Assembly (NCBI GenBank): GCA_038064415.1
Contig: JBBTTD010000001.1
Location: forward strand, 13,738 to 77,737
Length of the DNA stretch: 64,000 bases
From: Patescibacteria group bacterium
GTDB taxonomy: Bacteria > Patescibacteriota > Minisyncoccia > Phycocordibacterales > PALSA-1337
Direction: 5' to 3'
Position numbers and translations under genes: made by a program. The notes beneath the pieces were generated by a model. The model ran no database searches, was not told the DNA's origin, and saw nothing but the letters and a program-made list of their open reading frames with translations. Shown in pieces: positions 7,262-61,556 of the stretch; position 1 is the first letter of the stretch; every line of letters starts with the position of its first letter.

Positions 7262-7462
7262 TCTTGATTATGAATAAGTGATAGATTTCAAATCTCCTTC
7301 TAGGTTGTACACACTTTACTTCATTTTTTCCCGCCTATTCTGCTATACTATAGTTATCATTTTAATAATCAAATCAAATGCAATTTCAAACAGGTATTTT
7401 AGATAGAACTCGCTTAGTCTCAAACCTCCTGATGTCAATACTGGCTAGTAAGTTGATTTAGT

Positions 7463-8446: not shown

Positions 8447-8498
8447 AACTTTTGTCTCCAGTTTGTTGTGAGTCAATTTTTCGGCAAATTCGGAATTG

Positions 8499-8571
8499 TG
8501 GACCCGAGCGGACTTGAACCGCTTGCCTCCTCATTGCAAATGAGGCGCTCTACCAGATGAGCTACGGGCCC
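8499..8571 (-). tRNA. tRNA-Ala (anticodon TGC)
   Basis: Reverse complement reads GGGCCCGTAGCTCATCTGGTAGAGCGCCTCATTTGCAATGAGG...GGTTCAAGTCCGCTCGGGTCCA. It has a cloverleaf, the G3:U70 Ala identity pair and anticodon loop tTTGCaa. CCA is not encoded. Confidence 0.85.
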
Positions 8572-8774
8572 AGAAATAAAATTAGATTTTGATTTTCTAA
8601 GGAAATACTCCAATTATTTGTGATAATACATAAAACTGCTATAGACCTAAATTGTTATTAACAGTTAATCAACAGCATACACGAAGTGTGTGCATTCATC
8701 AATATGTGAAAATATGTTAAACTATATATTCACCCAAAGGTCGACTATTATTAGTCTTAATTTATTATAATAAT

Positions 8775-8864
8775 ATGGCCGATCAAAAAGTTTGTTCAGA
8801 TTGTAAACATGAACACAAGGAAGCAGATGGCAAATGTTCATGCGGATGTCCAGTTTCCAAGTAG
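8775..8864 (+). CDS. Small Cys-rich ORF (29 aa, MADQKVCSDCKHEHKEADGKCSCGCPVSK)
   Basis: ATG-initiated ORF with 5 Cys in CxxC / CxCxC spacing, followed directly by a strong hairpin terminator. Too short to appear in the ORF track. Confidence 0.35.
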   Translation: MADQKVCSDCKHEHKEADGKCSCGCPVSK

Positions 8865-8883
8865 TCTGATTTGCGTGTCAACA

Positions 8884-8915
8884 AAAAATCACACATTTAT
8901 GTGTGATTTTTTGTA
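8884..8915. terminator. Bidirectional rho-independent terminator
   Basis: AAAAAATCACACAT-ttat-GTGTGATTTTTT lies between the convergent small ORF (+) and the DUF378 gene (-). Confidence 0.7.
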
Positions 8916-8931
8916 TCAAACGAAAATGAGA

Positions 8932-9159
8932 TTACATTGATGATCCTGCCGCTGGAGCAGAAGAACTGTCGCAATGTTTACAATCTTTTCTGTGTCTGAC
9001 GATTAAGTAGATTGCTGACAATCCAACTAAGATATAGACAATTTTCGCTATAACAGATCCGAGATACGCGACCACATCGCCAACTCCGATACCGATAAGG
9101 AGCCAGTTAAGACCGCCGATTACTAAAAGAATAAACGCGACGCTGTGTAATGTTTTCAT
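8932..9159 (-). CDS. DUF378-family small membrane protein
   Basis: 75 aa with two TM helices and a GLNWLLIG motif typical of DUF378. Confidence 0.6.
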   Translation of the reverse strand: MKTLHSVAFILLVIGGLNWLLIGIGVGDVVAYLGSVIAKIVYILVGLSAIYLIVRHRKDCKHCDSSSAPAAGSSM

Positions 9160-9273
9160 TTTATTGCATTAAAATATTAATAATGACTTGTACGATTGTG
9201 CTTGTTACATTATAACAGGTAAAAGCTATATCTACATATATATAGTTATTCACAGTGCAAGGCGTGGATCTAA

Positions 9274-10881
9274 ATGATAGTACTTTCAGTTTTTTGCTAT
9301 AATTGTGCCATGGATTCAAGTATTCATTTGATAGTGCATAATGTTGCGGCGATTATTTCATCTGTAATGTTAATAGGTTTAGCTTTGTTTCTCGTTATCA
9401 ATAATCCACGCTCGCGGAGTACTATAATTTTTTCGTTGATGTTAGTTGCCGTTTTGGTTTTCATAGTTTCTCATGTAATCGGTGTAAACATAGTAGACCC
9501 AAATTTATCACGTGTCGTTTTTATGTTTAATTTGAGCATATTTTTTATTGGAGTTTTTATTTTTCATTCAATTATCGCGACAATTGGAAAAGAGAAAGAA
9601 CGGAAACTGATTCTGATTGCGATTTATGTAGCGAGTATTTTGATAACGGTCTTTTTTGTTTTTAATCCAGATCTATTTTTACTTCCTTCTATATCAAAAA
9701 TGTATTTTCCAAATTACTACGTGCCAGGGGTGTTAAATTGGCTACGCCTGGTATTTCTATATGGTCTTATGGTTCCATATTCTTTACTTGAGCTATTTCT
9801 AGCTTATCGCCAATCACAAAATAATATCGAACGCCAACAACTTAAGTATTTTATCATCGCTATATTTGTCGGTTTTTCTTTTGGTTTTATTCCAAATTTT
9901 CTAGTATACAATATTCCAGTTGATCCTCTCTGGGGAATACTCCTTGTTTCATTATTTGTGATCCCAATTGTATACGGTTCAGTAAGATATAGACTTTTCA
10001 ATATAAAAATCATAGCCACGCAAGCATTTTTCTATAGTCTTGCAATAGGAATTGTCGGAGGATTTATTTCTTTACTTAACTACTCAAACCAGTGGATTTC
10101 TGTGTTTTTCCCAAATTTTCCCATTTGGATAACCGCGCTTATATCAGCATTTTTTGCTGTTACCATTAGTGTTTTCGCATGGCGCAAACTTCGTGAAAGT
10201 GATCTCCTAAAATACGAGTTTGTCACCACAGTCACGCACAAATTCCGCACTCCGCTGACTCATATCAAATGGGCCTCGGAAAATCTATCCAAAAGCGCTC
10301 TATCAACCGATGATCAGACCCAAGTCAAATACATCCAATCAGCTGATGAAAAACTGGTTGAATTGACCAGATTGCTCATGAATATATCCGAGACTGAAAG
10401 CAGTGGCTATGAATACAAAATGGTTCGTAGTGACCTATCCGCTTTAGTCATTGAAGTAGAAAAAGGTATGCGTGAACAATACTTAATCAAAAATATGACA
10501 GTCACCGAAAAGATTGAGCCAGCGTTATATGCAGAATTTGACCAGTCTCGCATCAAATTTATTGTGCAGACATTTATAGAAAACGCCATTCGCTATACTA
10601 GAGAAGGAGGTACTATCCTTATCTCTCTCACTTCAAGAGGACATGATGTGGTATTTTCAGTCAAGGATACAGGTGTCGGCATCGCCAAAGACGAGCTGTC
10701 TCTGATTTTCTCCAAGTTCTATCGCAGTAAAGAAGCACGCCAAGTTGATACTGAAGGCATGGGTATCGGTCTATATGTCTCAAAAGAGATTATCTCAAGA
10801 CACAACGGCAAGATCTGGGCGGAGTCGGATGGATCTGGTAAAGGTAGTACTTTCAGTTTTTTACTTCCCGTGATCAAATAA
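9274..10881 (+). CDS. Sensor histidine kinase with a polytopic (about 7 TM) N-terminal domain
   Basis: Multi-TM N-terminus, then an H-box (FRTPLTHIKWASENL) and HATPase_c (GIGLYVSKEIISRHNGKIWAESDGSGKGSTFSF). No cognate regulator is adjacent. Confidence 0.8.
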   Translation: MIVLSVFCYNCAMDSSIHLIVHNVAAIISSVMLIGLALFLVINNPRSRSTIIFSLMLVAVLVFIVSHVIGVNIVDPNLSRVVFMFNLSIFFIGVFIFHSIIATIGKEKERKLILIAIYVASILITVFFVFNPDLFLLPSISKMYFPNYYVPGVLNWLRLVFLYGLMVPYSLLELFLAYRQSQNNIERQQLKYFIIAIFVGFSFGFIPNFLVYNIPVDPLWGILLVSLFVIPIVYGSVRYRLFNIKIIATQAFFYSLAIGIVGGFISLLNYSNQWISVFFPNFPIWITALISAFFAVTISVFAWRKLRESDLLKYEFVTTVTHKFRTPLTHIKWASENLSKSALSTDDQTQVKYIQSADEKLVELTRLLMNISETESSGYEYKMVRSDLSALVIEVEKGMREQYLIKNMTVTEKIEPALYAEFDQSRIKFIVQTFIENAIRYTREGGTILISLTSRGHDVVFSVKDTGVGIAKDELSLIFSKFYRSKEARQVDTEGMGIGLYVSKEIISRHNGKIWAESDGSGKGSTFSFLLPVIK

Positions 10882-10894
10882 GTTTTTCTAAAAT

Positions 10895-10968
10895 TGGTGG
10901 ACCTACCGAGAATCGGACTCGGGTCTCGGCAATGCGAATGCCGCGTCGTACCACTAGACCATAGGTCC
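10895..10968 (-). tRNA. Atypical tRNA, anticodon CGC (nominally Ala) but without G3:U70
   Basis: Reverse complement reads GGACCTATGGTCTAGTGGTACGACGCGGCATTCGCATTGCCGAGACCCGAGTCCGATTCTCGGTAGGTCCACCA. The cloverleaf folds, with anticodon loop ttCGCat, a 4-nt variable loop, T-loop TCCGATT (C at position 55) and an encoded CCA. The acceptor 3:70 pair is A:U. Confidence 0.55.
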
Positions 10969-10991
10969 TTCATACTACACCTCAAACTGTC

Positions 10992-11067
10992 TGGTGGACC
11001 ATAGCGGACTTGAACCGCTTACCTCACCCATGCCATGGGTGCGCTCTACCAGATGAGCTAATGGCCC
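10992..11067 (-). tRNA. tRNA-Ala (anticodon GGC)
   Basis: Reverse complement reads GGGCCATTAGCTCATCTGGTAGAGCGCACCCATGGCATGGGTGAGG...GGTTCAAGTCCGCTATGGTCCACCA. It has G3:U70, anticodon loop atGGCat and an encoded CCA. Confidence 0.85.
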
Positions 11068-11171
11068 GTGAAATTGAAATTATTCAAACAAAATCAGCAT
11101 ACATCAGAATAGAGAATTTCTCAATTTATTTTATTGCATAAAATCTTCTATTACTGTAGTATTTTCTGGTC

Positions 11172-11285
11172 ATGAAATTCATTGGTTTTATTTTCTGGAT
11201 TCTTTTGGCCATAATCATTTTACCATGCGTTTTTGTAGCAGGACATATTTATCCCTTGTGGACTGAATGGGGAGAAGAATTCTAA
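11172..11285 (+). CDS. Small hydrophobic peptide ORF (37 aa, MKFIGFIFWILLAIIILPCVFVAGHIYPLWTEWGEEF)
   Basis: ATG ORF with a single predicted TM helix in the 230-bp gap before zwf. Speculative. Confidence 0.25.
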   Translation: MKFIGFIFWILLAIIILPCVFVAGHIYPLWTEWGEEF

Positions 11286-11300
11286 TGTATAATACTATCA

Positions 11301-12746
11301 ATGGAGACTAAACTTGCAAATTCCGATCGTATCGCGCTCCATCCAACCATATTTGTGATTTTTGGTATTACCGGTGATTTAGCTTCAAGTAAGCTGATTC
11401 CGGCTCTTTTGGCGCTCTATTCCAAAAGACTATTGCCGCCGAATTTTGCCATAGTTGGCTTTTCTCGCCGAGTATTCAGCAGGGAAGAATTTCGAGAATT
11501 TATTCGCGATAAAATGAATGTCCGCCTCGGACAATTCAGAGAAGAAGACATCAAACATTTTTTAGATCACATGATATATGAACAAGGGATGTTTGATGAT
11601 CTCGGAGCTTATACGCGTCTGGCACTGAAATTAAAGAGCATAGATGATCGCTGGGGTCAATGTTCAAATAAATTGTTTCATCTTTCTGTCCCTCCAAATC
11701 TTTACGAAGGAATTTTAGCTAATATTTCCAATTCAAATTTATCCGCGCCTTGTGATGATGGCACGGGTTGGTCGCGTATTCTGATTGAAAAACCATTCGG
11801 CAGTGATATCAATACCGCGCATCATCTGGATAAGTTACTTGGTAAATTATTCAAGGAAGAACAAATATTCCGAATTGACCATTATTTAGCGAAAGAAGTT
11901 CTTCAAAACATTATTGCTTTTCGGTTTTCTAATTCAATGTTTGAGCCTTTATGGAATAGAAAATATATAGATAAGGTTCATATCAAGCTTTTTGAAAAAG
12001 AGACTATTGGTGAAAGAGGCGCCTTTTATGACTCAATCGGCGCATTTAGAGATGTTGGGCAAAACCATATATTGATGATGTTAGCCATCACCGCCATGGA
12101 GGCGCCGAAATCTTTTAGCGCGAATAACATTCGCAGCGAACGTGCCAGAATCTTGCGTAGACTTCGATCTTTTTCCAAGAGATCAATTAACAAAAGTGTT
12201 TTGCGCGGTCAGTATGTTGGTTACACCCAAGAACACGGTGTTTCACCAAAATCTCAGTCAGAAACTTATTTCAGAATTGAATCATACATAAATTCCGCGC
12301 GCTGGAGAGGGGTGCCATTTTATCTTGAGAGCGGTAAAGCTTTGGCTGAATCAAAAGCAGAAATTGATATATATTTTAAAGATACTAAAAATCCAAAAAT
12401 AGAAATTAAAGATTCAGCGCGAAAGATATATAAAAATTCACAGAACATTTTGACATTTAGGATCCAGCCCGATGAAGGAATAAGGATAAGATTTTTCGTC
12501 AAAAAACCTGGACATGAATTTAAGACAGAATCTAAAACCCTGAAATTTAAGTATGCTGACGCTTCTTCGTTTCATAATATACCGAATGATTATGAGCGTT
12601 TGATTCATGATGCCTTCGTCGGCGATCAAACACTGTTTGCTTCAACCGATGAGATTATGGCTTCTTGGAAATTTATCATGTCCATCTTAGACAATATAAA
12701 AAAAGTTCCATTGAAACTTTATGAGAGGGGAGCATCAGAAGTTTAG
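11301..12746 (+). CDS. zwf: Glucose-6-phosphate 1-dehydrogenase
   Basis: IFGITGDLASSKLIPAL N-terminus, RIDHYLAKE and a C-terminal G6PD domain. Confidence 0.8.
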   Translation: METKLANSDRIALHPTIFVIFGITGDLASSKLIPALLALYSKRLLPPNFAIVGFSRRVFSREEFREFIRDKMNVRLGQFREEDIKHFLDHMIYEQGMFDDLGAYTRLALKLKSIDDRWGQCSNKLFHLSVPPNLYEGILANISNSNLSAPCDDGTGWSRILIEKPFGSDINTAHHLDKLLGKLFKEEQIFRIDHYLAKEVLQNIIAFRFSNSMFEPLWNRKYIDKVHIKLFEKETIGERGAFYDSIGAFRDVGQNHILMMLAITAMEAPKSFSANNIRSERARILRRLRSFSKRSINKSVLRGQYVGYTQEHGVSPKSQSETYFRIESYINSARWRGVPFYLESGKALAESKAEIDIYFKDTKNPKIEIKDSARKIYKNSQNILTFRIQPDEGIRIRFFVKKPGHEFKTESKTLKFKYADASSFHNIPNDYERLIHDAFVGDQTLFASTDEIMASWKFIMSILDNIKKVPLKLYERGASEV

Positions 12747-12756
12747 TTGATTTCAA

Positions 12757-12947
12757 TCAAGAAACAAAATAAGGTTGTAATTTTTCAAGCCGAGGACTGT
12801 TTGAGCGACTAGAAATTACTTGGTAAAAGGCGAATGGCGTTGGAATCACCAAAGCTTTGCTTTGTGTGATTCCTGAGCCGTTTACCTAGTAATTTCAGGA
12901 GCGAGTTCCGCAGGCTTGAAAAATTACAACCTTATTTTGTTTCTTGA
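12757..12947. repeat. 191-bp element with perfect 35-bp terminal inverted repeats and nested internal inverted repeats
   Basis: Left arm TCAAGAAACAAAATAAGGTTGTAATTTTTCAAGCC (12757-12791); right arm is its exact reverse complement (12913-12947). Additional internal inverted repeats (GGAATCAC...GTGATTCC; CTAGAAATTACTTGGTAAA / TTTACCTAGTAATTTCAGG) lie between them. It starts 10 nt after the zwf stop. Confidence 0.7.
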
Positions 12948-13117
12948 TAGTCGTTATCCACCCCTCAAACCCTTGCCTGTAACAAGGGTTTTATGTTATC
13001 CACAGTTTCATTTGCGTGCCTAAAATAGTAAAGTGGTATATAATATCCATCAAGTGGGAAGAAGTGGTAAATAATTTACTTATTAATACCTCTTAAATTT
13101 TCCCAGAATTTACAAAA

Positions 13118-20329: not shown

Positions 20330-20335
20330 TAAAAT

Positions 20336-20379
20336 CAAGGTCGGACCTTGGGTGATTTGGAGCTAAGGTCCGACCTTGA
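20336..20379. repeat. Palindromic element family 1: two AAGGTCGGACCTT-type units in inverted orientation
   Basis: CAAGGTCGGACCTTGGgtgatttggagCTAAGGTCCGACCTTG. The exact reverse complement of this 43-bp sequence recurs at 50806-50850. Confidence 0.8.
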
Positions 20380-20416
20380 TTTTACGAACTTCCTCCATAT
20401 TTGTTATACTATCTTC

Positions 20417-32283: not shown

Positions 32284-32323
32284 AGCGAGGTCCGACCTTG
32301 ATATATTGAGGTCGGACCTCGCT
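32284..32323. repeat. Palindromic element family 1 (AGCGAGGTCCGACCTTGatatatTGAGGTCGGACCTCGCT)
   Basis: A perfect hairpin directly after the rpoB stop. It shares the GCGAGGTC(C/G)GACCTCGC core with 37762-37786. Confidence 0.8.
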
Positions 32324-37724: not shown

Positions 37725-37761
37725 ACTCTGATATTTGGCAAGGCCTACCCTTGTCTAAATT

Positions 37762-37786
37762 CTTAGCGAGGTCGGACCTCGCTAAG
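37762..37786. repeat. Palindromic element family 1 (CTTAGCGAGGTCGGACCTCGCTAAG, a perfect 25-bp palindrome)
   Basis: Sits between the convergent SLFN-like gene and typA; a partial extra copy CCGACCTCGC lies at 37805-37814. Confidence 0.8.
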
Positions 37787-39587
37787 ATATTAAATCCTTC
37801 CTTTCCGACCTCGCCCGATCTAATTCTGTCAAAAACTTTTTGCGTAGGCGAACACTTTTTGGAGTAATTTCCAAATATTCATCATCACGCATCAATTCCA
37901 GACCTCTTTCAATAGACAATTCAAATGGTGGTACCAGCATCAACGCCTCGTCTTTACCCGACGAACGCATATTACTCATAGCTTTACCTTTTGTTGGATT
38001 GACATCCATATCGTCGCCTTTGGCAGTATCACCAATAACCATACCTTCGTAAACTTCAACTGCTGGTCCTACGAAGAGGCGACCGCGATCTTGAAGATTC
38101 CAAAGTGAGAAGCCAAGAGTTTTGCCAGAAGTCATAGATGTCATTGAGCCGGTTTCGCGTTTTTCTATTTCGCCGACATGATTTTTAAATTCCGTAACTC
38201 GACTAGACATGATACCTTCACCTTTTGTGTCAATTGTAAATGCGTTACGATAACCCAAAAGACCGCGAGTTGGAATTTCAAAGACCATGCGTACTTGATT
38301 GCCATGAGCTTTCATGTCATTCATGATTCCTTTTCTTTTGCCTAGAGTTTCTATAATTGTCCCAGAATATTCTTGCGGACAATCAATGATCACTTCCTCA
38401 AAAGGTTCTAACATTTTGTCATTTTCTTCTTTAACAATGACTTTTGGCTGTGAGACTTGTAGTTCATATCCTTCGCGACGCATATTTTCTAGTAAAATAG
38501 CGATATGGAGCTCACCTCTGCCAAATACATTCAGGTATTCGTTTGAAGAAAAGTCAACTTTTAAACCGACATTTGTTTCTAATTCTTTGTGGAGCCGTTC
38601 ACGGATTTGTCGGCCAGTTACAAAAGTCCCTTCGCGTCCGGCGAAAGGTGAATTGTTAACTAAAAATTGCAGAGAAATCGTCGGTTCATCAACAGTAATG
38701 GCCGGAAGTGGCTGTGAGTTTTCATTATCGGTAATTGTCTCGCCAATATAAATGTTAGGAATACCAGCGACGGTAATAATATCACCAGATTCTGCTTGAT
38801 CAATTTCTACACGCTTTTTTCCTTCAAAAGTGAATAATTTAGTAATTTTACCTGTAAATGATTTGCCATTGATGTCTTTAACCCAGACACTTTGGCCATT
38901 TTTTATTATTCCATTATAAATACGGCAAATGGCGAGGCGACCAAGGAAATTGTCATAACTTAGATTAAATACTTGTGCTTGAAGTGAATTGTCAGTTATG
39001 CCGCTAAGACTTTTTTTATTTGCCGGTGGTACATGCTCAAGAATAGTATCCAAAAGTGGTGTCAGATCTTTGGAGTCGTCAATTAAAGATTTTTTCGCGA
39101 TTCCAGTTCGGCCAATAGCATAAATAGTAGGGAAATCAATCTGACTATCATGCGCGCCAAGTTCCATAAAAAGCTCTAGGACTTCGTCATGAACACGAAG
39201 CGGATTGGCTGCTGGTTTATCAATTTTGTTGATTATTACAATAGGTTTCAATCCTAATTCAAGTGATTTCTTCAAGACAAAGCGAGTCTGTGGCATAGGA
39301 CCTTCTTGGGCGTCTACGACTAAAAGAACAGTGTCAATTGAACGAAGAACGCGTTCAACTTCAGATCCGAAATCAGCATGGCCTGGAGTGTCCACAATGT
39401 TGATTTTGGTACCCTTATACATTATTGAGGTATTTTTAGCGTATATCGTAATACCGCGCTCCTGTTCGAGCGCGTTTGAGTCCATTGTACCTTCGTCACC
39501 ATGACCGCATTGGGCCATGATAGCGTCAGTCAGCGTAGTCTTCCCATGATCTACGTGAGCGATAATTGCAATATTACGAATCTCCAT
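37782..39587 (-). CDS. typA: Translational GTPase TypA/BipA
   Basis: MEIRNIAIIAHVDHGKTTLTDAIM, the DTPGHADF and NKID G motifs, and an EF-G-like domain series. The start is trimmed to the MEIRN Met. Confidence 0.85.
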   Translation of the reverse strand: MEIRNIAIIAHVDHGKTTLTDAIMAQCGHGDEGTMDSNALEQERGITIYAKNTSIMYKGTKINIVDTPGHADFGSEVERVLRSIDTVLLVVDAQEGPMPQTRFVLKKSLELGLKPIVIINKIDKPAANPLRVHDEVLELFMELGAHDSQIDFPTIYAIGRTGIAKKSLIDDSKDLTPLLDTILEHVPPANKKSLSGITDNSLQAQVFNLSYDNFLGRLAICRIYNGIIKNGQSVWVKDINGKSFTGKITKLFTFEGKKRVEIDQAESGDIITVAGIPNIYIGETITDNENSQPLPAITVDEPTISLQFLVNNSPFAGREGTFVTGRQIRERLHKELETNVGLKVDFSSNEYLNVFGRGELHIAILLENMRREGYELQVSQPKVIVKEENDKMLEPFEEVIIDCPQEYSGTIIETLGKRKGIMNDMKAHGNQVRMVFEIPTRGLLGYRNAFTIDTKGEGIMSSRVTEFKNHVGEIEKRETGSMTSMTSGKTLGFSLWNLQDRGRLFVGPAVEVYEGMVIGDTAKGDDMDVNPTKGKAMSNMRSSGKDEALMLVPPFELSIERGLELMRDDEYLEITPKSVRLRKKFLTELDRARSERKDLIS

Positions 39588-43656: not shown

Positions 43657-43872
43657 ATGCATAACACGAATCCACGAATAAAAAACGCGAGAAAATTGGA
43701 CGAATCTTTTAGGTGTTTTAATTTCGTCGTGCGAGGTATGACTTTGATAGAAGTAATAATTTACACGGTTTTACTTTCTTTGTTGATAACCAATATGATC
43801 AATTATCTATATACAATGCATATTAACAACATTAAACTCATTAACGATGTTCAAGATTCTCAAAATCTATAA
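43657..43872 (+). CDS. Type IV prepilin (minor pilin), unusually long leader if the start is at 43657
   Basis: VRG|MTLIEVIIYTVLLSLL is a canonical prepilin peptidase site (G-M-T-L-I-E). An alternative TTG/GTG start nearer the cleavage site is possible. Confidence 0.6.
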   Translation: MHNTNPRIKNARKLDESFRCFNFVVRGMTLIEVIIYTVLLSLLITNMINYLYTMHINNIKLINDVQDSQNL

Positions 43873-44131
43873 ATCATGTCGTCGCCGAAGAATATATGGT
43901 TTTATTGCCACGACCGCCATCATTTTACTTTCAACAGGAAGTTTAGCATTTCTTGTTGCGACTTCATCTGCCGTTTTCATGTATGCCGATAGTATTGAAA
44001 AGAGGGAAATCAGAATTCAAAATAACCTTAATCAGCAAGCTTGCCAAGATACTCTACGAATAATGAATGCCAAGGATTATTTCTTAAATGTTGACATTCA
44101 ACTTAGTGATTTTGGATGTATAGCGAGGTGA
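43847..44131 (+). CDS. Hypothetical small membrane protein (possible minor pilin)
   Basis: Hydrophobic N-terminal helix plus a C-terminal Cys pair (QQACQD ... GC), reminiscent of a pilin D-region disulfide. Confidence 0.35.
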   Translation: MFKILKIYKSCRRRRIYGFIATTAIILLSTGSLAFLVATSSAVFMYADSIEKREIRIQNNLNQQACQDTLRIMNAKDYFLNVDIQLSDFGCIAR

Positions 44132-44139
44132 GACCTTGC

Positions 44140-44935
44140 TTATGAAATAAAAAAATGGCCCGGACATTCGCTTCATTGCTGAAACAAATGCCGGACCAGA
44201 TCGTGAGAGTCTCCATCATCGCTTGTAAGTATCGGAATTAATCCTGTCTTAGATTGAACTCCGTCTTAGACCTTCCGAGTTTAGCCTTGCGGTTTATTTC
44301 GTTAAGTCATCTTGCAATTGATTCTGGAATTCCTCTACCTTTTTTAGGGGCAGAAGGACATTGTGAGTTGGTGTCCTCACCGTGATTTTTCGCTTGCGCT
44401 ACTATTTCATGTCCTGGCGTGAACGAACTGATACGGTGTTCGCTTCGTCGGTCTATTGTTCTTTGTTCCCTCCACTGGCGATCTTACGATCGTTGTATGA
44501 AAGAATGTTCGGAACTCATTCTGGACTACCTAGTCCAGTGCATACCTAGTCATTGCTTCTTGATGATATTGATGCTTTTGAGGCACCAACATTCATTGGC
44601 ATGAGTACTTTTTACATTAGCACCCACTGAACTCTGTATGGGTTTTGCAACCTTTTTGACCTTGCGGTCATACAAGTAATGTTTAGTGTCATCAGTTGTT
44701 TTCGTATCTTACCTTAGTTGAATTTCTTCTTCTTTGGTTTGAAACTATACAATTGTAAACATTCTTTGTATTTTGGGCGCCTTTCTCTCTAGGCTCCCCG
44801 GTTTCACACCTTGACTTGATGTGAGACCGTAAACTTTTAAGGAACAACTCCACTTGGAGCGTGAAGAGGATGATACACCCACCAAGCAATCCTCGTCAAG
44901 CGTTTTTAAAATACAAATTATTTTAGGAATCTTGT
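44140..44935. other. About 800-bp ORF-free, GC-richer intergenic region with multiple local hairpins (candidate structured RNA or decayed gene)
   Basis: No ORF above about 60 aa with any recognisable product on either strand. Local hairpins include CTGGACTA-cc-TAGTCCAG, GGTTTCACA...TGTGAGACC and GACC-ttgc-GGTC. This gap is exceptional in an otherwise compact window. Confidence 0.4.
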
Positions 44936-45012
44936 CAAATTTTGGTATTTTAGGGATAAAAAAATGAGTAGCTAAACTTTGCTTTTTTGATTTTACACTG
45001 TAGACTTTCACT

Positions 45013-46248: not shown

Positions 46249-46449
46249 ATGAAAGGCCACATGCTTACAATGTTAGTGACATTGTTGGTGATCGGACTCA
46301 AAGTATTGTTTGTACTTCTCGCGACAGTACTGTTAATATTCGGTTTTTTTGTTTTCCTGCTCCACCCCGTTTGGACGAAGGGCCTAAGGAATTCATTACC
46401 GTTTTTCCTGCTTGGTTTGGTTATTGCCTTTCTGCTTTTCAAGAAGTAG
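46249..46449 (+). CDS. Small two-TM membrane protein (66 aa)
   Basis: MKGHMLTMLVTLLVIGLKVLFVLLATVLLIFGFFVFLLHPVW...; a terminator follows. The overlapping alternative ORF 46221..46598 has no membrane or compositional support. Confidence 0.4.
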   Translation: MKGHMLTMLVTLLVIGLKVLFVLLATVLLIFGFFVFLLHPVWTKGLRNSLPFFLLGLVIAFLLFKK

Positions 46450-46530: not shown

Positions 46531-49482
46531 ATGATTACACTTATGAAAAATTCTGGCGAAAAAGTCAATCCAAAAGCGTTAAAATTACCTGCTTATGACC
46601 ATTCAAAGATAGAACCTAAGTGGCAAAAACTTTGGGAAAAACAAAAGTTTGACCAGGCCAGAGAAGATCCAAAGAAAAAGAAGTTTTACGGTTTAATTGA
46701 ATTTCCGTATCCATCCGGCGAAGGACTGCATGTTGGACATATTCGCAGTAATACAGCCATGGATATTATTGCTCGAAAGCGTCGAAGAGAAGGCTATGAA
46801 GTTTTGTTTCCTATCGGTTGGGATGCTTTTGGTCTGCCAACCGAAAATTACGCTATTAAGACTGGTATTCAGCCCGCCATAGTTACCAAAAAAAACACTG
46901 ATACATTTCGCCGACAATTGAAAGCGCTGGGTTTTTCTTTTGATTGGTCGCGTGAAATAGATACGACTGATCCCAAATACTATAAATGGACGCAGTGGAT
47001 ATTTTTGCAATTCTTTAAAAAAGGGCTGGCTTATAAAAAGAAAATGGCTATCAATTGGTGTCCAAAGGATATGATTGGTCTAGCAAATGAAGAAGTTGTA
47101 AATGGTTGTTGTGAACGATGTGGCACGCCCGTGGAAAAACGAGAGAAGGAACAATGGATGCTGGCTATTACTAAATATGCCGATCGATTAGACAGAGATT
47201 TAGATGAAGTTGATTTTCTGGAAAAGATTAAAATTCAACAAAGGAATTGGATAGGGAAGAGTGAGGGTGCGGAGATTGGGTTTAAGTTTGTCATTCCCGC
47301 CCTTGATGGAAGTCGAGGACATGCTCCAACGGGAATCCAAGATCACATTGCGAATTTTGTCTTGCTTCATGGATTTACCGCCACGCCAGATGATGATTTT
47401 CACCCTTGGCTCAAGAAAAAACTTGAAAATTTAGGATATAAAGTGCAAGCGCCGAAATTGCCGAATACTGAAAAACCCACAGAAAATGAGCAGGTTGAAT
47501 TTGTCCTAGATAATGTCAAGTTTGATGAAAATACTGTCTTACTTGGTCATAGTCTTGGTTCTGTGGTTGCTTTAAAGGTTTTAGAAAAACTTAATAAAAA
47601 GATCGCAGGACTTGTGACTGTCGGTGGATTTATTGATACAAACTTCAAAGATCATGACAGAAATTTTGCTGAAAGATTTGGATGGGACTTTGATTTTAAT
47701 AAAATAAAATTAAATGTTAGTTTTATTCGTGTTTTACACGATAAAAATGATGTAGCGATTACTGATGGTCAAGCCAAGAGATTAGCCACTGCTTTGGGAG
47801 TAAATGTTATTGAGCGCATGGCTAATGAGGGTCATTTTTGCGCAAAAGAAGAACCAGCTATATTTGAAGTCATCATACCAAGTATAAAAGTCTTCACGAC
47901 TCGCCCAGATACATTATTTGGCGTGACTTATCTGGTTCTCGCGCCTGAACATCAATTGGTAAAAGAACTTTTGCCAAATGTTCAAAATAAGAAAGAAGTT
48001 GAAGATTATATTTCCAAAACTAAAAAGGAAACTGATATTGAACGCGCTGACGCTTCAAAAGAAAAAACAGGCGTTGAGTTGAAAGGAATTAAGGTTATAA
48101 ATCCAGCAAATAACGAAGAACTACCAGTTTGGATTGCTGATTATGTTTTGGTTGACTACGGCACTGGCGCTGTAATGGCTGTGCCGGCGCATGATGAGAG
48201 GGATAAACAATTTGCCCAAAAATATAGTCTGCCAACCAAAGAAATTATTCTCGCAGATAAAAAAGAAATAATTACTGAATTTGGAAAATCAGTTACCACC
48301 TACAAACTTCGTGACTGGGTGTTTTCACGCCAAAGATACTGGGGTGAGCCCATCCCTGTAGTGCATTGCGAACAATGTGGGATTGTTCCCGTGCCAGAAA
48401 AAGATTTGCCGGTTAAATTACCGAAAGTAAAAAATTATCAGCCGACGCAGACTGGAGAATCACCGCTAGCTTCAATTGGAAAGTGGGTGAATACTAAATG
48501 TCCGAAATGTAAAGGCAAAGCTCGTCGCGAAACAGATACAATGCCTCAATGGGCTGGCTCAAGCTGGTATTATCTGCGCTACGCTGATTCAAAAAATAGT
48601 AAAGTTTTTGCCGGTAAAGATAGACTGAAGTATTGGACGCCAGTAGACTGGTACAACGGTGGAATGGAGCATACAACATTGCATCTGCTTTATTCTCGTT
48701 TTTGGCATAAATTCTTATTTGATTTAGGTTTAGTGCCGACAAAAGAACCATATCAAAAAAGAACCTCACATGGACTCATTCTAGCCGAAGGTGGCGCTAA
48801 AATGTCAAAATCAAGAGATAATATTGTCAGTCCCGACGATATTGTGAAGATTGTTGGCGCGGACTCTTTGCGTCTTTACGAAATGTTTATGGGACCCTTT
48901 GACCAACCAATCGTCTGGAATACGGATAATATTGCCGGGGTCAGGAGGTTTATTGAGCGAGTGTGGAAAATGAGAGAAAAAGTCGTTCAAAAAATGGACG
49001 AAAAGATTGATGATTTTGTGTTGATCAACAAGATTATCCACAAAGCTATCAAAAAAGTCAGCGACGATATTGAAGCGATGAGATTTAATACTGCCATCAG
49101 CGCGCTCATGATTACATTCAATGAACTTGAAAAATTCAGAGTTGTTGATATAGAACAATATGGAGTTTTTCTTAAATTACTGGCACCATTTGCGCCACAT
49201 GTGACTGAAGAATTGTGGGCATCTCTGAATCATAAAAATTCTATTCATACGACTGAATGGCCGATGTATGATCCAGTTTTGGCGATTGATTCACAGACAA
49301 CTATCGTTGTCCAAATAAATGGCAAAATGCGTGGCTCATTCACTGTTCCAATTGATATCAGTAAGGAAGAATTAGAAAATCGCGCGCGGACATTACCAGA
49401 ATCCGCGAAGTGGTTGGAAGGGAAGAGTATCATGAAGATAGTTGTTGTTCCCAATAAGTTAGTCAATTTTGTCATAAAGTAG
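46531..49482 (+). CDS. leuS: Leucyl-tRNA synthetase with an inserted alpha/beta serine-hydrolase (YdeN/RBBP9-like) domain
   Basis: Class I motifs (HVGH, KMSKS), a CP1 editing domain (TTRPDTLFGVTYLVLAPEH) and a C-terminal anticodon-binding region. About 195 extra residues (aa 254-449) lie between NWIGKSEGAEIGF and the editing domain. They include LLHGFTATPDDDFHPWL, GHSLG (GxSxG), a conserved Asp and ANEGHF. Confidence 0.85.
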   Translation: MITLMKNSGEKVNPKALKLPAYDHSKIEPKWQKLWEKQKFDQAREDPKKKKFYGLIEFPYPSGEGLHVGHIRSNTAMDIIARKRRREGYEVLFPIGWDAFGLPTENYAIKTGIQPAIVTKKNTDTFRRQLKALGFSFDWSREIDTTDPKYYKWTQWIFLQFFKKGLAYKKKMAINWCPKDMIGLANEEVVNGCCERCGTPVEKREKEQWMLAITKYADRLDRDLDEVDFLEKIKIQQRNWIGKSEGAEIGFKFVIPALDGSRGHAPTGIQDHIANFVLLHGFTATPDDDFHPWLKKKLENLGYKVQAPKLPNTEKPTENEQVEFVLDNVKFDENTVLLGHSLGSVVALKVLEKLNKKIAGLVTVGGFIDTNFKDHDRNFAERFGWDFDFNKIKLNVSFIRVLHDKNDVAITDGQAKRLATALGVNVIERMANEGHFCAKEEPAIFEVIIPSIKVFTTRPDTLFGVTYLVLAPEHQLVKELLPNVQNKKEVEDYISKTKKETDIERADASKEKTGVELKGIKVINPANNEELPVWIADYVLVDYGTGAVMAVPAHDERDKQFAQKYSLPTKEIILADKKEIITEFGKSVTTYKLRDWVFSRQRYWGEPIPVVHCEQCGIVPVPEKDLPVKLPKVKNYQPTQTGESPLASIGKWVNTKCPKCKGKARRETDTMPQWAGSSWYYLRYADSKNSKVFAGKDRLKYWTPVDWYNGGMEHTTLHLLYSRFWHKFLFDLGLVPTKEPYQKRTSHGLILAEGGAKMSKSRDNIVSPDDIVKIVGADSLRLYEMFMGPFDQPIVWNTDNIAGVRRFIERVWKMREKVVQKMDEKIDDFVLINKIIHKAIKKVSDDIEAMRFNTAISALMITFNELEKFRVVDIEQYGVFLKLLAPFAPHVTEELWASLNHKNSIHTTEWPMYDPVLAIDSQTTIVVQINGKMRGSFTVPIDISKEELENRARTLPESAKWLEGKSIMKIVVVPNKLVNFVIK

Positions 49483-49755: not shown

Positions 49756-50793
49756 ATGGCAACATCAACAATCTCATTTAAACCCAAGCAGATCGTCAAA
49801 CGTCTTCTCGCTTCATTACCTGATCGCGCTCGTGAAGTTATCATATATCGTTATGGACTTGGTTCTGATACCAAGCGTATGACACTTGACGCAATTGGAA
49901 AGAAATATGGTATTACTCGCGAACGAGTTCGTCAGATAGAAAACTACGCGCTCGGAATTATCCGCAAATCTGACGAGTATCGGTTGGAAAAAGCAATTTT
50001 TGCTGAACTAGAGACCCTGCTTCATGCTTTGGGTGGAGTTGTCGTGGAAGATGATTTCCTTGGTCATGTCTCAAAGGACAAGAGTCTTCAAAATCATGTT
50101 CATTTTCTCTTAGTTATTGGTGAACCTTTCAAAAAAAGAAAAGAAGATGATGAGTTCAATCATCGTTGGCATGTCAATGAGGAACTTTCTACTCAAGTAG
50201 AAGATGCCCTACGCAAACTTTATAACAATCTTAATACGCAAGATCTTTTGCCTGAATCAGAGATTATCAACAAATTTCTTCAGCATTTAGAGAGTGTTTC
50301 TGAACGCTACAAGAATCAAGAGATTATGAAACGCTGGTTGGCATTATCTAAATCAATCGGAAAGAATGCTTTAGGAGATTGGGGTGCGGCAAATTCTTCA
50401 AATATCAAGACCAAGGGTATGCGTGATTATGCTTTTCTAGTTATCAGAAAACATGGTTCGCCGATCCATTTTCGTGATGTAGCCAAGCAGATTATGGCGA
50501 TGTTTAACAAGAAAGCTCATGTTGCCACGACTCACAATGAGTTGATTAAAGATCCTCGCTTCGTGCTAGTCGGTCGTGGTTTATATGCTTTGGCAGAATG
50601 GGGTTATGCGCCAGGAATTGTACGAGATGTTATACGACTTGTTATACAGAAAAATGGTCCAATGACCAAAAATGAGATAATCTCTAAAGTCCTGAAGGAA
50701 CGCTATGTTAAGGAAAACACCATTGCGGTAAATCTCCAAAACCCGAAGTATTTCAAAAAAGACAAGGATGGTAAGTATTCGGTGGTTGCGTAA
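49756..50793 (+). CDS. Sigma-70 region-4 HTH fused to HARE-HTH-like domain(s)
   Basis: N-terminus VIIYRYGLGSDTKRMTLDAIGKKYGITRERVRQIENYALGIIRK matches sigma-70 region 4.1/4.2. The C-terminus (FRDVAKQI ... DPRFVLVGRGLYALAEWGY) matches the HARE-HTH fold of the RNAP delta subunit. Confidence 0.5.
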   Translation: MATSTISFKPKQIVKRLLASLPDRAREVIIYRYGLGSDTKRMTLDAIGKKYGITRERVRQIENYALGIIRKSDEYRLEKAIFAELETLLHALGGVVVEDDFLGHVSKDKSLQNHVHFLLVIGEPFKKRKEDDEFNHRWHVNEELSTQVEDALRKLYNNLNTQDLLPESEIINKFLQHLESVSERYKNQEIMKRWLALSKSIGKNALGDWGAANSSNIKTKGMRDYAFLVIRKHGSPIHFRDVAKQIMAMFNKKAHVATTHNELIKDPRFVLVGRGLYALAEWGYAPGIVRDVIRLVIQKNGPMTKNEIISKVLKERYVKENTIAVNLQNPKYFKKDKDGKYSVVA

Positions 50794-50805
50794 GAAATAA
50801 AAAAA

Positions 50806-50850
50806 CCAAGGTCGGACCTTAGCTCCAAATCACCCAAGGTCCGACCTTGG
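50806..50850. repeat. Palindromic element family 1 (exact reverse complement of the 20336-20379 copy), flanked by an A-run and a T-run
   Basis: AAAAAACCAAGGTCGGACCTTagctccaaatcaccCAAGGTCCGACCTTGGTTTTTTT has the shape of a bidirectional terminator. Confidence 0.8.
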
Positions 50851-50932
50851 TTTTTTTAAATAGTCCTCGGCAATAAAAACATGTGTGCACTATTATTGTT
50901 TTTGGTTAAGCTGTTCATGTTATAATAGTGGC

Positions 50933-52219
50933 ATGCCCGTTGAACAATTAATTCCGTCATTGGTATCGGATTTTAAATCAAATATTCTGCCACAGGCGAT
51001 TCAATTCATCATAACTATTTCGCCGATACTTTTTGTCTTTATTATGGCCAAGATTTTTTGGCCAATCTGGGTCAGTTATGTAAGGTCCAAGAATTTTCTA
51101 TCATTGAAATATACAACGCTTGAGATAAAGTTACCTAAAGACACATTCAAGTCTCCATTAGCGATGGAAGTATTTCTGCAATCTTTGCACAACACCGCGG
51201 ACGGAAGTCTCTATGCCCAATATTGGAAAGGCGAGACCCGGCCATGGTATTCTTTGGAGTTGGTTTCCATTGAAGGACGAGTTAAGTTTTTTATTTGGAC
51301 GGAAGATAGACGCAAAGGTGGAGTGATATCAGGATTGTATTCACAGTTTCCAGGAGTTGAAGTTCATGAAAATGAAGATTATGCGCGATCAGTACATTTT
51401 GATCCAAACACAATGAAAATCTGGGGATGCGAGTTTAAATTTACCAGAGAAGATCCTTACCCAATTAAAACCTATGTTGATTATGGACTTGATAAAGATC
51501 CAAAAGAGGAGTTCAAAGTAGATCCAATGACGCCTTTGATTGAATTTTTAGGAAATGTCGGAACTAATCAACAGATTTGGTTACAAATCTTGTTTCGCGC
51601 CCACAAAAAAGAGCAAAGAAAACCTGGGCATTGGTTTAAAAAGACGGATTTGTGGCAAGATGAAGCAAAGGAATTAGTTAATGAAATTTTAATCCGTGAC
51701 GCCAAGACCAAAGTGTCGGGTGAAATAAATCCAGATACCGGATACAGTAAATCACCGACGATCTCCAAAGGTGAACAAAGTATCGTTGAATCAATTGAGA
51801 GAAGCGTGACTAAACTTGCTTTTGATACTGGCATCAGGGCGCTCTATATTTCTAAAAAAGAAGTATTTGATGGACCTTTCGGAATAGGTGGAATTATTGG
51901 CAATATGAAGCATTTCAATACAGAAAGTCTCAATGGTTTCAAACCTAATGGGGATGTTTGGCATAGTAGACTAGACGATCCTTGGAAGGATTATAATAAT
52001 ATTCGTCGAGACCGCTATGCTCGTGAAGCTTTGGCTACATACAAACGTCGATCATTTTTTTATCCCGCGCTGTATCCATTTAGTAGGAGTAAATCTATGA
52101 TACTAAATACCGAAGAATTGGCTACGGTATATCATTTTCCAGGATCCGTCGCCGCTACCCCATCACTGGATCGTATTCCATCAAAGAAAGCCGAGGCACC
52201 TTCAAATCTGCCAGTCTAA
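50933..52219 (+). CDS. Hypothetical membrane-anchored protein
   Basis: N-terminal TM helix, then a 400-aa soluble region with no Walker motif and no recognisable domain. The start is trimmed to MPVEQLIP. Confidence 0.45.
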   Translation: MPVEQLIPSLVSDFKSNILPQAIQFIITISPILFVFIMAKIFWPIWVSYVRSKNFLSLKYTTLEIKLPKDTFKSPLAMEVFLQSLHNTADGSLYAQYWKGETRPWYSLELVSIEGRVKFFIWTEDRRKGGVISGLYSQFPGVEVHENEDYARSVHFDPNTMKIWGCEFKFTREDPYPIKTYVDYGLDKDPKEEFKVDPMTPLIEFLGNVGTNQQIWLQILFRAHKKEQRKPGHWFKKTDLWQDEAKELVNEILIRDAKTKVSGEINPDTGYSKSPTISKGEQSIVESIERSVTKLAFDTGIRALYISKKEVFDGPFGIGGIIGNMKHFNTESLNGFKPNGDVWHSRLDDPWKDYNNIRRDRYAREALATYKRRSFFYPALYPFSRSKSMILNTEELATVYHFPGSVAATPSLDRIPSKKAEAPSNLPV

Positions 52220-53241: not shown

Positions 53242-54375
53242 ATGAATAGAAAAGGACTGAAATCCAAAGTCTTCGTTGGCATGTCTGGCGGAGTGGATTC
53301 GTCGCTTTCCGCGACATTGCTGAAAAAAGCCGGGTTTAATGTAACGGGTGTTTTCATCAAGGTTTGGCAACCTAATTGGATAAAATGTGCTTGGAAAGAG
53401 GATCGGTTGGACGCGATGCGTGTCGCGGCACATTTAGATATTCCATTTGTCACACTTGATCTGGAAAAGGAATATAAAAAAAATGTCGTTGATTATATGA
53501 TCAATGAATACAAGTCTGGTCGCACGCCGAATCCAGATGTAATGTGCAACAAAAGCGTCAAATTTGGAGCTTTTTACGACTGGGCTATGGAAAATGGAGC
53601 AGATTTTATCGCGACTGGACATTATGCGAGAATAAGCGCGCGAGTACAAAAAAGTCCACAAACCGCAAATAAATCGTTCCGTCAACTACTTAAAGCGGTT
53701 GATCCAAGTAAAGATCAATCATATTTCTTGTACACATTGAAACGAGAACAACTTCAGCATATTTTATTTCCAATCGGTCATCTTAAAAAGACTGAAGTCA
53801 GGAAATTAGCGAAAAAGTCCAAACTACCGACGGCGGATAAAAAAGACAGTCAAGGTTTGTGTTTTATCGGCAAAGTTGACGTAAAAGATTTTCTTTCTCA
53901 CTATGTTGAAGCGAAATCAGGTAACATCTTGAATGAAAATGGGGAAATTATCGGCATTCATCCTGGCGCGTTGTTTTTTACGATTGGCGAGAGACATGGA
54001 TTCACGATAACAAGAAAGACTCCCGACGATTTGCCGTATTATATTGTTGATAAAGATGTTGAACGAAATACTCTTACTGTTTCGAGAAAAGATCTGGGCA
54101 ATAGACTTGCTCATACAGAGAAGGTGGCGCGAATAGATAAAGTCAATTGGATTGAGGGTGTTGTTCCAAATCAATTTGGCGCTGTAGATTCAGCTTTTTC
54201 ACTGCAAGCGCAGAGCCGATATCACCAAACTATGCAAAAAATTCGTATCAGTAATTTAACTATTTCTGGCATGACGATTGAATTTGAACAACCTCAAGAA
54301 GTAATTACACCTGGACAATCATTAGTTATTTACGATGGGGAAGTTTGTCTGGGAGGCGGAATTATTGAAGATTAA
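53242..54375 (+). CDS. mnmA: tRNA-specific 2-thiouridylase MnmA
   Basis: VGMSGGVDSS PP-loop, conserved Cys residues, C-terminal domain. Confidence 0.85.
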   Translation: MNRKGLKSKVFVGMSGGVDSSLSATLLKKAGFNVTGVFIKVWQPNWIKCAWKEDRLDAMRVAAHLDIPFVTLDLEKEYKKNVVDYMINEYKSGRTPNPDVMCNKSVKFGAFYDWAMENGADFIATGHYARISARVQKSPQTANKSFRQLLKAVDPSKDQSYFLYTLKREQLQHILFPIGHLKKTEVRKLAKKSKLPTADKKDSQGLCFIGKVDVKDFLSHYVEAKSGNILNENGEIIGIHPGALFFTIGERHGFTITRKTPDDLPYYIVDKDVERNTLTVSRKDLGNRLAHTEKVARIDKVNWIEGVVPNQFGAVDSAFSLQAQSRYHQTMQKIRISNLTISGMTIEFEQPQEVITPGQSLVIYDGEVCLGGGIIED

Positions 54376-61180: not shown

Positions 61181-61438
61181 TTGTCTGCTAGTATTGTCAG
61201 ACGCGCTAAATACGAAATGGACACTGCGCCAAAATCCAAAAATACCGCAAGCGGCATTGTCGTTGAGGCGTTGCCGAATACGCTATTTAGAGTTGAACTC
61301 CAAGATTCCAAGGAAATTATTTTGGCATATCTTGCTGGTAAAATGCGAATGAATCGCATTAGAGTACTCATTGGAGATAAAGTCGAACTGGAACTGGATC
61401 CATACGGAGGTAGAGCTAGGATCACAAGACGTCTATAA
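61181..61438 (+). CDS. infA: Translation initiation factor IF-1
   Basis: [51 protein letters not shown]; the true start may be the Met at 61217 (MDTAPKS). Confidence 0.85.
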
Positions 61439-61439
61439 A

Positions 61440-61556
61440 ATGAAAGTTAAAGCATCAGTAAAACGAATTTGTCCAAAGTGTACCGTCGTTCGGCGAGGGG
61501 GATATGTTTATGTGGTCTGCAAATCAAATCCAAGACATAAACAACGCCAAGGGTAA
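61440..61556 (+). CDS. rpmJ: 50S ribosomal protein L36
   Basis: [38 protein letters not shown], beginning 2 nt after the infA stop. Confidence 0.9.

Follow-up and report, generated by a model that had tools for sequence, protein, structure and literature searches.

A predicted 0.7-kb structured non-coding RNA gene divergent from ychF in a Patescibacteria genome

A Long Gene-Free Spacer Upstream of ychF

The window analyzed here is a 64,000-nucleotide stretch from a Patescibacteria group bacterium (assembly GCA_038064415.1, contig JBBTTD010000001.1, positions 13,738 to 77,737), and our subject is the 881-bp spacer at 44132-45012, located between a pilin-like open reading frame (ORF) that ends at 44131 and ychF, which starts at 45013, where we predict a minus-strand gene for a large structured non-coding RNA (ncRNA). 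The median intergenic spacer in the window measures 120 bp, and the longest ORF lying wholly within 44132-45012 has 65 amino acids (one of 111 amino acids is antisense to the start of ychF), confirming the unusually long, ORF-free spacer reported before ychF by the original prediction, which had been made from the sequence alone. It is the sole large spacer in the window truly devoid of a gene, since the other large gaps proved to hold small genes (see below), and independent gene callers placed nothing in the ychF gap in any of the four assemblies of the species. The spacer is identical across these four independent assemblies, bar one single-nucleotide polymorphism (SNP). All four encode the exact YchF protein of the window; two are contigs of 125 and 72 kb obtained from groundwater of the Hainich wells (0.1-um filtration), and the other two are Logan assemblies. 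Metatranscriptomes exist from the same wells (PMC12960796).

The GC content of the spacer is 0.403, with an internal peak of 0.447, compared to a mean of 0.329 for the other spacers. The description of this region as GC-richer thus holds against other spacers and fails against coding DNA, which has the same value (0.40), and therefore GC alone cannot tell an RNA gene from a dead protein gene. The plus strand is T-rich (AT skew down to -0.35), so the minus strand is A-rich.

A Predicted Promoter- and Terminator-Bounded Unit on the Minus Strand

On the minus strand we predict a sigma-70-like promoter at 44870-44899, with a -35 box TTGACG (44899-44894), an 18-nt spacer, and a -10 box TATCAT (44875-44870). 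It matches the consensus at 10 of 12 positions in a promoter scan, at least as well as do the promoter-like stretches that precede the tRNA genes of the window; the predicted start lies near A44862, and a second TTGACA is found ca. 38 nt further upstream. At the other end, an intrinsic terminator (44149-44198) consists of a 19-pair stem closed by a GCAA loop (44198-44156) and followed by U7 (44155-44149). Its stem was estimated at -28.5 kcal/mol in a window-wide scan (-29.2 kcal/mol on a slightly longer excerpt), and it ranks second among the terminator-like sites on both strands of the whole window. This terminator is an orphan, with no minus-strand gene upstream of it, and it is an intrinsic terminator on the minus strand only, the plus strand having no T-run after the stem. 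From promoter, terminator, folding, and the lack of a coding signal, we predict a primary transcript of ca. 714 nt (44862 to 44149), A-rich and full of hairpins.

The folding energy of the full spacer on the minus strand is far from that of random sequences (z = -9.35), and even after removal of the terminator it stays 39.5 kcal/mol below dinucleotide shuffles (z = -8.2), while 28 equally long control windows averaged z = -0.9 (standard deviation 1.75). GNRA-capped hairpins are also enriched on this strand, with six having stems of at least 3 bp (P = 0.0036) and four having stems of at least 4 bp (P = 0.0022, 5000 dinucleotide shuffles in both cases). On the minus strand such hairpins number 5.5 per kb, compared to 0.64 per kb across the window; the plus strand of the spacer has none. 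Besides, several of the minus-strand helices hold G-U pairs, which on the plus strand are A-C mismatches.

Four Elements Shared With a Second Locus

The most informative comparison was with a locus from the JGI metagenome 3300050517 (L018), whose ychF is 87% identical to that of the window. There, a gap of ca. 530 bp between a 74-amino-acid gene and ychF contains an ORF-free unit of ca. 435 nt on the minus strand (2425-2855), likewise bounded by a predicted promoter (TTTGCA-17-TATGAT) and a terminator that adjoins the 74-amino-acid gene, with a folding z of -4.3. At its four-fold degenerate sites, ychF shows just 34% identity between the two loci, meaning that neutral sequence is saturated. 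Because MAFFT alignments of the modules were not consistent with structure, the base pairs were tabulated by script.

The first shared element, Box 1 (44836-44848, minus strand, GUUGUUCCUUAAA), is predicted to be single-stranded and starts 21-22 nt past the -10 box. In L018, 12 of its 13 nt recur at the same offset from the -10, the common pattern being GUUGUUCNUUAAA, and the core TTGTTC.TTAA had only one unrelated match in ca. 0.7 Mb. It is followed by hairpin P2 (44799-44829, minus strand), 31 nt long and made of 4 bp, a bulge, 7 bp, and a 7-nt loop, with pair probabilities of 0.98-0.99; its arms are the GGTTTCACA..TGTGAGACC pointed out in the original prediction. In L018 there is also a 31-nt hairpin starting 18 nt after the start of Box 1, exactly as in the window, and when placed on the window geometry 10 of its 11 pairs are kept, six of the pairs having changed on both sides and one on a single side, with one pair broken. 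Only 0.35% of 238,360 31-mers reach 10 or more P2 pairs (P = 0.0035), and nowhere else in the L018 RNA is this number attained.

The Box 2 module (44463-44505, minus strand) comprises a pyrimidine strand UUCUUUCAU, a 5-bp hairpin with a GUAA loop (44492-44479, CGAUC-GUAA-GAUCG), and then GGAGGGAAC (44473-44465). Its equivalent in L018 reads CCUCU, CAGUU-GGAA-GACUG, and GGAGGAAC. Compared to L018, the apical stem has two both-sided and one one-sided changes. In the basal helix GGAGG is invariant, and the pyrimidine strand facing it differs by three C/U exchanges only. Of the 372 GGAGG sites in 558 kb, those of these two RNAs are the only ones with an adjacent 5-bp GNRA hairpin. The tail of Box 2 is complementary to Box 1, over 9 bp in the window RNA (UUGUUCCUU/AGGGAACAA, from the centroid fold), of which 4 bp are invariant in both RNAs.

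Finally, Box 3 (44203-44213, minus strand, GAGACUCUCAC) ends 4 nt before the terminator stem, and so does its L018 equivalent GAAACUCUUCAC. The pattern GA(R)ACUCU(U)CAC has three matches in 558 kb, one of them unrelated. A purine-loop hairpin directly after P2 (44775-44798, minus strand, pair probability 0.99) has a loop, AGAGAGAA (44790-44783), complementary to the CUCUC core of Box 3, and we propose a long-range pairing (LR2) between the two, GAGAG:CUCUC in the window and GAAGAG:CUCUUC in L018, where the extra A of the purine stretch AGAAGAGA is matched by the extra U in Box 3.

We have therefore defined the candidate family by Box 1, P2 18 nt on, a GNRA hairpin plus GGAGG(G)AAC, and Box 3 four nt before the terminator, all on the strand opposite to ychF (search patterns GTTGTTCNTTAAANNNNNNYGGT and GARACTCTYCAC). 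All four elements are found in both RNAs with the same order and spacing, the definition itself having been derived from these two sequences. As a control, a scan of IMG/VR for Box 1 plus YGGT gave 52 chance matches, and none of the 52 had P2, Box 2, or Box 3. The window RNA is ca. 280 nt longer than that of L018, mostly between P2 and Box 2. Common descent with a conserved fold is, in our view, the best reading of this pair and a highly probable one, preferred because the coincidences are independent of one another and have to be taken together.

Variable Arms and 3' Domain

The region between the purine-loop hairpin and Box 2 (44521-44771, minus strand) would form variable peripheral arms, delineated from the list of helices with their probabilities and from the GNRA census, and it is ca. 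160 nt shorter in L018. It opens with a long arm (44771-44670), after which come a pair of neighboring hairpins capped by GCAA (44669-44658 and 44652-44641), an arm with branches (44640-44541), and a fully paired 7-bp hairpin (44538-44521). After Box 2, a hairpin read from the sequence as AGUA-GC-GCAA-GC-GAA (44385-44409, minus strand) resembles a loop E or sarcin-ricin (bulged-G) motif. The 3' domain has two more minus-strand hairpins with pair probabilities of 0.96-0.98, one with a GCAA loop and A-rich internal loops (44308-44269) and another at 44263-44233. The three hairpins that had been quoted at the outset all exist, at 44521-44538, 44800-44828, and 44658-44669.

Weighing the Evidence for an Independent RNA Gene

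Taken together, these data make it probable, at roughly two chances in three, that the spacer is an independent gene for a highly structured ncRNA of ca. 0.71 kb, predicted to be transcribed from the minus strand between ca. 44862 and ca. 44149 and belonging to no known family. Several observations weigh against this conclusion. One coding control, at 1001-1665, is nearly as extreme in folding (z of -6.3 and -5.0 on its two strands), being the sole control locus of this kind, and the positional entropy of the predicted fold is not significantly below that of shuffles. Aligning the window RNA with L018 gave no significant overall score (global z 0.7, local z 0.2), an nhmmer search of all the loci retrieved recovered only the query itself and did not link L018, and a single-sequence covariance model of the 5' module, which we judged too specific, gave L018 6.2 bits (E = 2); the failure of alignment is to be expected, since neutral sites are saturated. 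The candidate homologue is a single one, and as the shared elements were found by inspection, their individual P values are post hoc. Scans with 12 codon-degenerate 24-nt seeds per collection (derived from stop-masked translations of the RNA, six per scan) found nothing in 185,579 GTDB species genomes or in JGI metagenomes. In most relatives (L005, L008, L023, and L049), the spacer between the 75-amino-acid gene and ychF is only 19-50 bp, so that the site is variable and the RNA dispensable for them. The strains of the species differ by ca. 0.5%, in patchy hot spots; the RNA has a single SNP and ychF has no SNP, and this variation is too low to show selection. The control at 1001-1665 lies inside a 702-amino-acid ORF, and it folds unusually well on both strands.

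Alternative Explanations

The alternative that best survives is that the spacer is non-functional filler, a variable spot that collects lineage-specific DNA at a rearrangement junction and whose signals are incidental or relics. The nearest other organisms have YchF proteins 86-87% identical and a 516-amino-acid pilus protein 59% identical to those of the window, and in them the genes are ordered as lysS, the 75-amino-acid gene, ychF, and leuS in one place and, separately, as pilus genes, two small genes, and scpA. From these orders, the arrangement in the window is a rearrangement junction with the break directly beside the terminator of the RNA, and this synteny breakpoint speaks for the filler explanation. 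The site also varies among relatives, from the short spacers mentioned above to an unrelated one of 341 bp (L015), a 128-amino-acid coiled-coil gene placed between the 75-amino-acid gene and ychF (L019), and the gap of ca. 530 bp in L018. The large collections searched gave no sequence homologue, and AT-rich DNA often contains promoter-like matches (10 here, where 5.4 were expected, about two-fold over shuffles). However, a filler of 881 bp fits poorly with such a streamlined genome, the enrichment in folding and in GNRA hairpins is specific to one strand and greatly exceeds what shuffles give, there is no other transcript for the very strong terminator to end, and filler would have to account for four positional and structural coincidences with L018 in spite of the saturated neutral divergence. 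We consider this explanation unlikely.

Less likely still is that the spacer works as a long untranslated part of a plus-strand transcript, either the 3' tail of the pilus operon or the leader of ychF, or as a control region at the DNA level in which Box 1 is the operator of divergent promoters. The plus strand also beats shuffles (z of -4.8 and -6.2), the pilus operon is without a good plus-strand terminator (a weak hairpin followed by T5 is found at 44859-44907, close ahead of the promoter region of ychF), and the fixed distance of Box 1 from the -10 box would suit an operator. Against a plus-strand transcript stand the absence of GNRA hairpins on that strand, the A-C mismatches into which the G-U pairs of several helices turn, and a strong terminator that would function on the minus strand only, and against an operator, the location of Box 3 and of the Box 2 hairpin, both far from any promoter. 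Both variants are quite improbable.

The original prediction had left two possibilities, a structured RNA or a decayed gene, of which the first stands (on the minus strand, bounded by promoter and terminator, and with no known family) and the second does not. Searching the six frames of the spacer against Pfam gave a single match at chance level (Ribosomal_L34e, E = 0.49), the six frames joined as one query had nothing at E <= 10 among 5.8 billion proteins, and tblastn with the genes bordering the pilus operon or ychF of relatives found no trace of them within the gap. The hexamer coding score, trained on the genes of the window, has a maximum of 0.18 in the spacer, below the 5th percentile of genes (0.22), and there is no 3-base periodicity (chi-square 2.2, P = 0.9), while for gene segments of that length the median is 43 and the minimum 12.7. 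What favors a decayed minus-strand gene is frame -1, with seven stop codons in 293 codons compared to 18-20 in the other two minus-strand frames and with hexamer scores of ca. 0 to 0.13, exceeding the antisense and wrong-frame backgrounds, along with a spacer GC equal to that of coding DNA. Nevertheless, the scores never come within the coding range, every gene segment has the codon-position signal that is missing here, and no frame shows protein similarity. As the stops are a mixture of TAA, TAG, and TGA, which makes recoding unlikely, and periodicity is absent, we regard the low stop count as chance and a decayed gene as very improbable.

The known RNA families were examined with Rfam 15 (4227 models), which at gathering thresholds found only four tRNAs in the whole window. 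When the spacer was searched at E <= 10, whole and as two shorter pieces, only chance matches to snoRNA and IRES models appeared, far below threshold, and the L018 counterpart had no match either. The Rfam/Infernal scan proposed as a check on the structured RNA was thus negative; we do not take it as a refutation because the evidence from promoter, terminator, folding, and comparison remains. The statement that the region matches neither RNase P RNA, transfer-messenger RNA (tmRNA), nor signal recognition particle (SRP) RNA was borne out by covariance models even at E <= 10, including both bacterial RNase P models (RNaseP_bact_a and RNaseP_bact_b), which recognize a P4 helix formed by the conserved GAGGAAAGUCC and ACAGAA..GGCUUA segments. 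The string GAATGTCCGGGCC, noted before as resembling P4, is in fact one arm of the terminator hairpin. ARAGORN at default stringency detected no tRNA or tmRNA in the spacer and no tmRNA in the window (a spurious call appeared only at 80% thresholds), and the spacer has neither a tRNA-like domain nor a tag reading frame. With introns of up to 1200 nt allowed it reported zero genes, and manual inspection of the 5' and 3' ends found no acceptor or T-arm. BLASTN of the region against phage genomes gave no match, the seed scan of viral contigs found no relatives of the RNA, and scans of IMG/VR based on ychF retrieved only distant loci from outside the Patescibacteria.

Group I introns are frequent in Patescibacteria, and some, in tRNA-Thr genes, are missed by both RF00028 and ARAGORN (PMC13011429, 2026). 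The spacer has no match at E <= 10, short pieces included, to RF00028 (group I), a model known to miss divergent Patescibacteria introns (PMC13011429), nor to RF00029 (group II), and it has no reverse-transcriptase ORF. A strongly diverged self-splicing intron, or the remnant of another mobile ribozyme, which the abundance of GNRA loops and long-range pairings might suggest, is very improbable too, given that ARAGORN with introns allowed found no flanking exon halves at default stringency, that promoter and terminator belong to the unit itself, and that no host gene is interrupted.

Neighboring Genes and Other Observations

The small genes that account for the other large gaps of the window had been hidden by a minimum-length ORF filter. 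They encode a 75-amino-acid hydrophobic membrane protein (8932-9159, minus strand), InfA and RpmJ (61181-61556, plus strand), and a 66-amino-acid hydrophobic membrane protein (46249-46449, plus strand). The ychF-leuS spacer was considered as a second RNA candidate and rejected, since it encodes a small membrane protein. Next to it, the leucyl-tRNA synthetase (46531-49482, plus strand) has 983 amino acids and an inserted serine-hydrolase/alpha-beta-hydrolase domain, while those of relatives, with 795-846 amino acids, are without this insert or have a NUDIX domain instead; a free-standing Ser_hydrolase gene of 189 amino acids is found elsewhere in some relatives.

On the other side of the spacer, the two pilin ORFs at 43657-44131 (plus strand, 71 and 94 amino acids) are the two halves of what in relatives is a single pseudopilin gene of 136-157 amino acids, split by a frameshift near 43870-43897. 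As all four independent assemblies show this split, it should be a real disruption or a programmed frameshift. The degenerate palindrome noticed earlier at the 5' edge of the region does exist (44122-44140, GAGGTCGGACCTC family); it is located where the pilin-like ORF ends, outside the RNA. Other members of the AAGGTCGGACCTT / GAGGTCGGACCTC family are located at 20330-20384, 32284-32323, 37756-37792, and 50798-50858, often flanked by an A-run and a T-run, and they look like bidirectional terminators reused between genes.

The hot spots of strain difference are 44086-44144, 50500-51000, and 53500-54000. The first one, at the C-terminus of the pilin, ends just short of the U-tract at 44149-44155, which suggests a recombination boundary. 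The possibility that 44134-44148 is the remnant stop region of a lost 75-amino-acid gene was dropped as too weak, the same A-rich stretch being the end of the pilin ORF in strain L002. As for the ychF neighborhood of relatives, the 341-bp spacer of L015 (4660-5000, plus strand) has a GC of 0.39 in a locus of 0.33 and a plus-strand terminator hairpin just upstream of ychF, and may be an unrelated small RNA or leader. In L008, phage-like genes (AAA_24, a homologue of replication protein O, and DNA methylases) follow directly after ychF (7256-13110), indicating that this neighborhood is also an integration site.

A Putative RNA Family of Patescibacteria

If the spacer is indeed an independent RNA gene, its transcription would start at the sigma-70-like promoter, back-to-back with the promoter region of ychF, and would end at the strong intrinsic terminator facing the end of the pilus operon. 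The RNA would fold into many local hairpins, several of them GNRA-capped, joined by A-rich linkers. Its core, kept in both RNAs, would comprise the single-stranded Box 1, P2, the GNRA hairpin standing on the pyrimidine:GGAGG helix, and Box 3, the peripheral arms being variable, and the pairing of Box 3 with the purine loop of the 5' domain would close the molecule. Box 1 (GUUC...) and the local pyrimidine strand could compete for the GGAGG-GAAC tail, a competition that would give two mutually exclusive conformations around a Shine-Dalgarno-like sequence. Such an RNA may act in trans, as a folded scaffold or decoy whose business ends would be Box 1 and the Shine-Dalgarno-like GGAGG. A connection with translation is suggested by its fixed position beside ychF, which encodes a ribosome-binding ATPase, and leuS. 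Among the modes of action this is the likeliest one, and even so a doubtful one. The wider proposal, namely a founding member of an undescribed family of 0.4-0.7 kb RNAs of Patescibacteria (Paceibacteria), always divergent from ychF, with a GGAGG toggling between two partners and a closure of 5' loop on 3' tail, and acting on the translation machinery, is put forward tentatively, its chances being slightly below even.

The closest parallels are the large bacterial RNAs OLE, ROOL, GOLLD, and raiA, which are also stand-alone units of several hundred nt bounded by promoter and terminator, with many hairpins, GNRA tetraloops, A-rich linkers, and long-range pairings, GC-rich compared to the other spacers of an AT-rich genome, and patchily distributed. 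However, none of their Rfam models matches here, the phylum is Patescibacteria, two members are known so far, and the unit is fixed beside ychF, without association to tRNA, phage, or membrane-protein genes. With RNase P RNA, tmRNA, and SRP RNA it shares the condition of an independent structured RNA gene that stands out as a GC-rich spacer, and it differs from them in the lack of any match to their models, of a tRNA-like domain, and of a tag frame, its P4-like string belonging to the terminator. The group I introns of Patescibacteria (PMC13011429) come from the same phylum and are structured RNAs with GNRA loops, possibly invisible to standard annotation, but the unit described here interrupts no host gene, has no match to RF00028, and has a promoter and a terminator of its own and about twice the usual length of a tRNA intron. 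The likeness to 6S-type and decoy RNAs is one of analogy and not of membership: a conserved Shine-Dalgarno-like GGAGG would take part in alternative pairings in a translation neighborhood (ychF and leuS, with lysS in relatives), yet there is no long hairpin with a central bubble and no match to 6S in Rfam. Provisionally, we would class it as a new family among the large stand-alone ncRNAs of bacteria, with two known sequences. In limited literature searches and in Rfam we found no lineage-specific large ncRNA of Patescibacteria.

The genomes of Patescibacteria are tiny and leave very little DNA to spare, their ribosomes are unusual, and many functions are absent. Some large bacterial ncRNAs (the OLE, ROOL, and GOLLD group) are reported to form RNA-only assemblies. 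RNAs of this kind can evolve past the reach of sequence search, and in this case the second member was revealed only by synteny and short boxes. If our reading is true, a folded RNA of 0.4-0.7 kb beside the gene of a translation factor would be a new class alongside OLE, ROOL, and GOLLD, and it would offer a target for structure probing and cryo-electron microscopy, as well as for the study of translation regulation in Patescibacteria symbionts.

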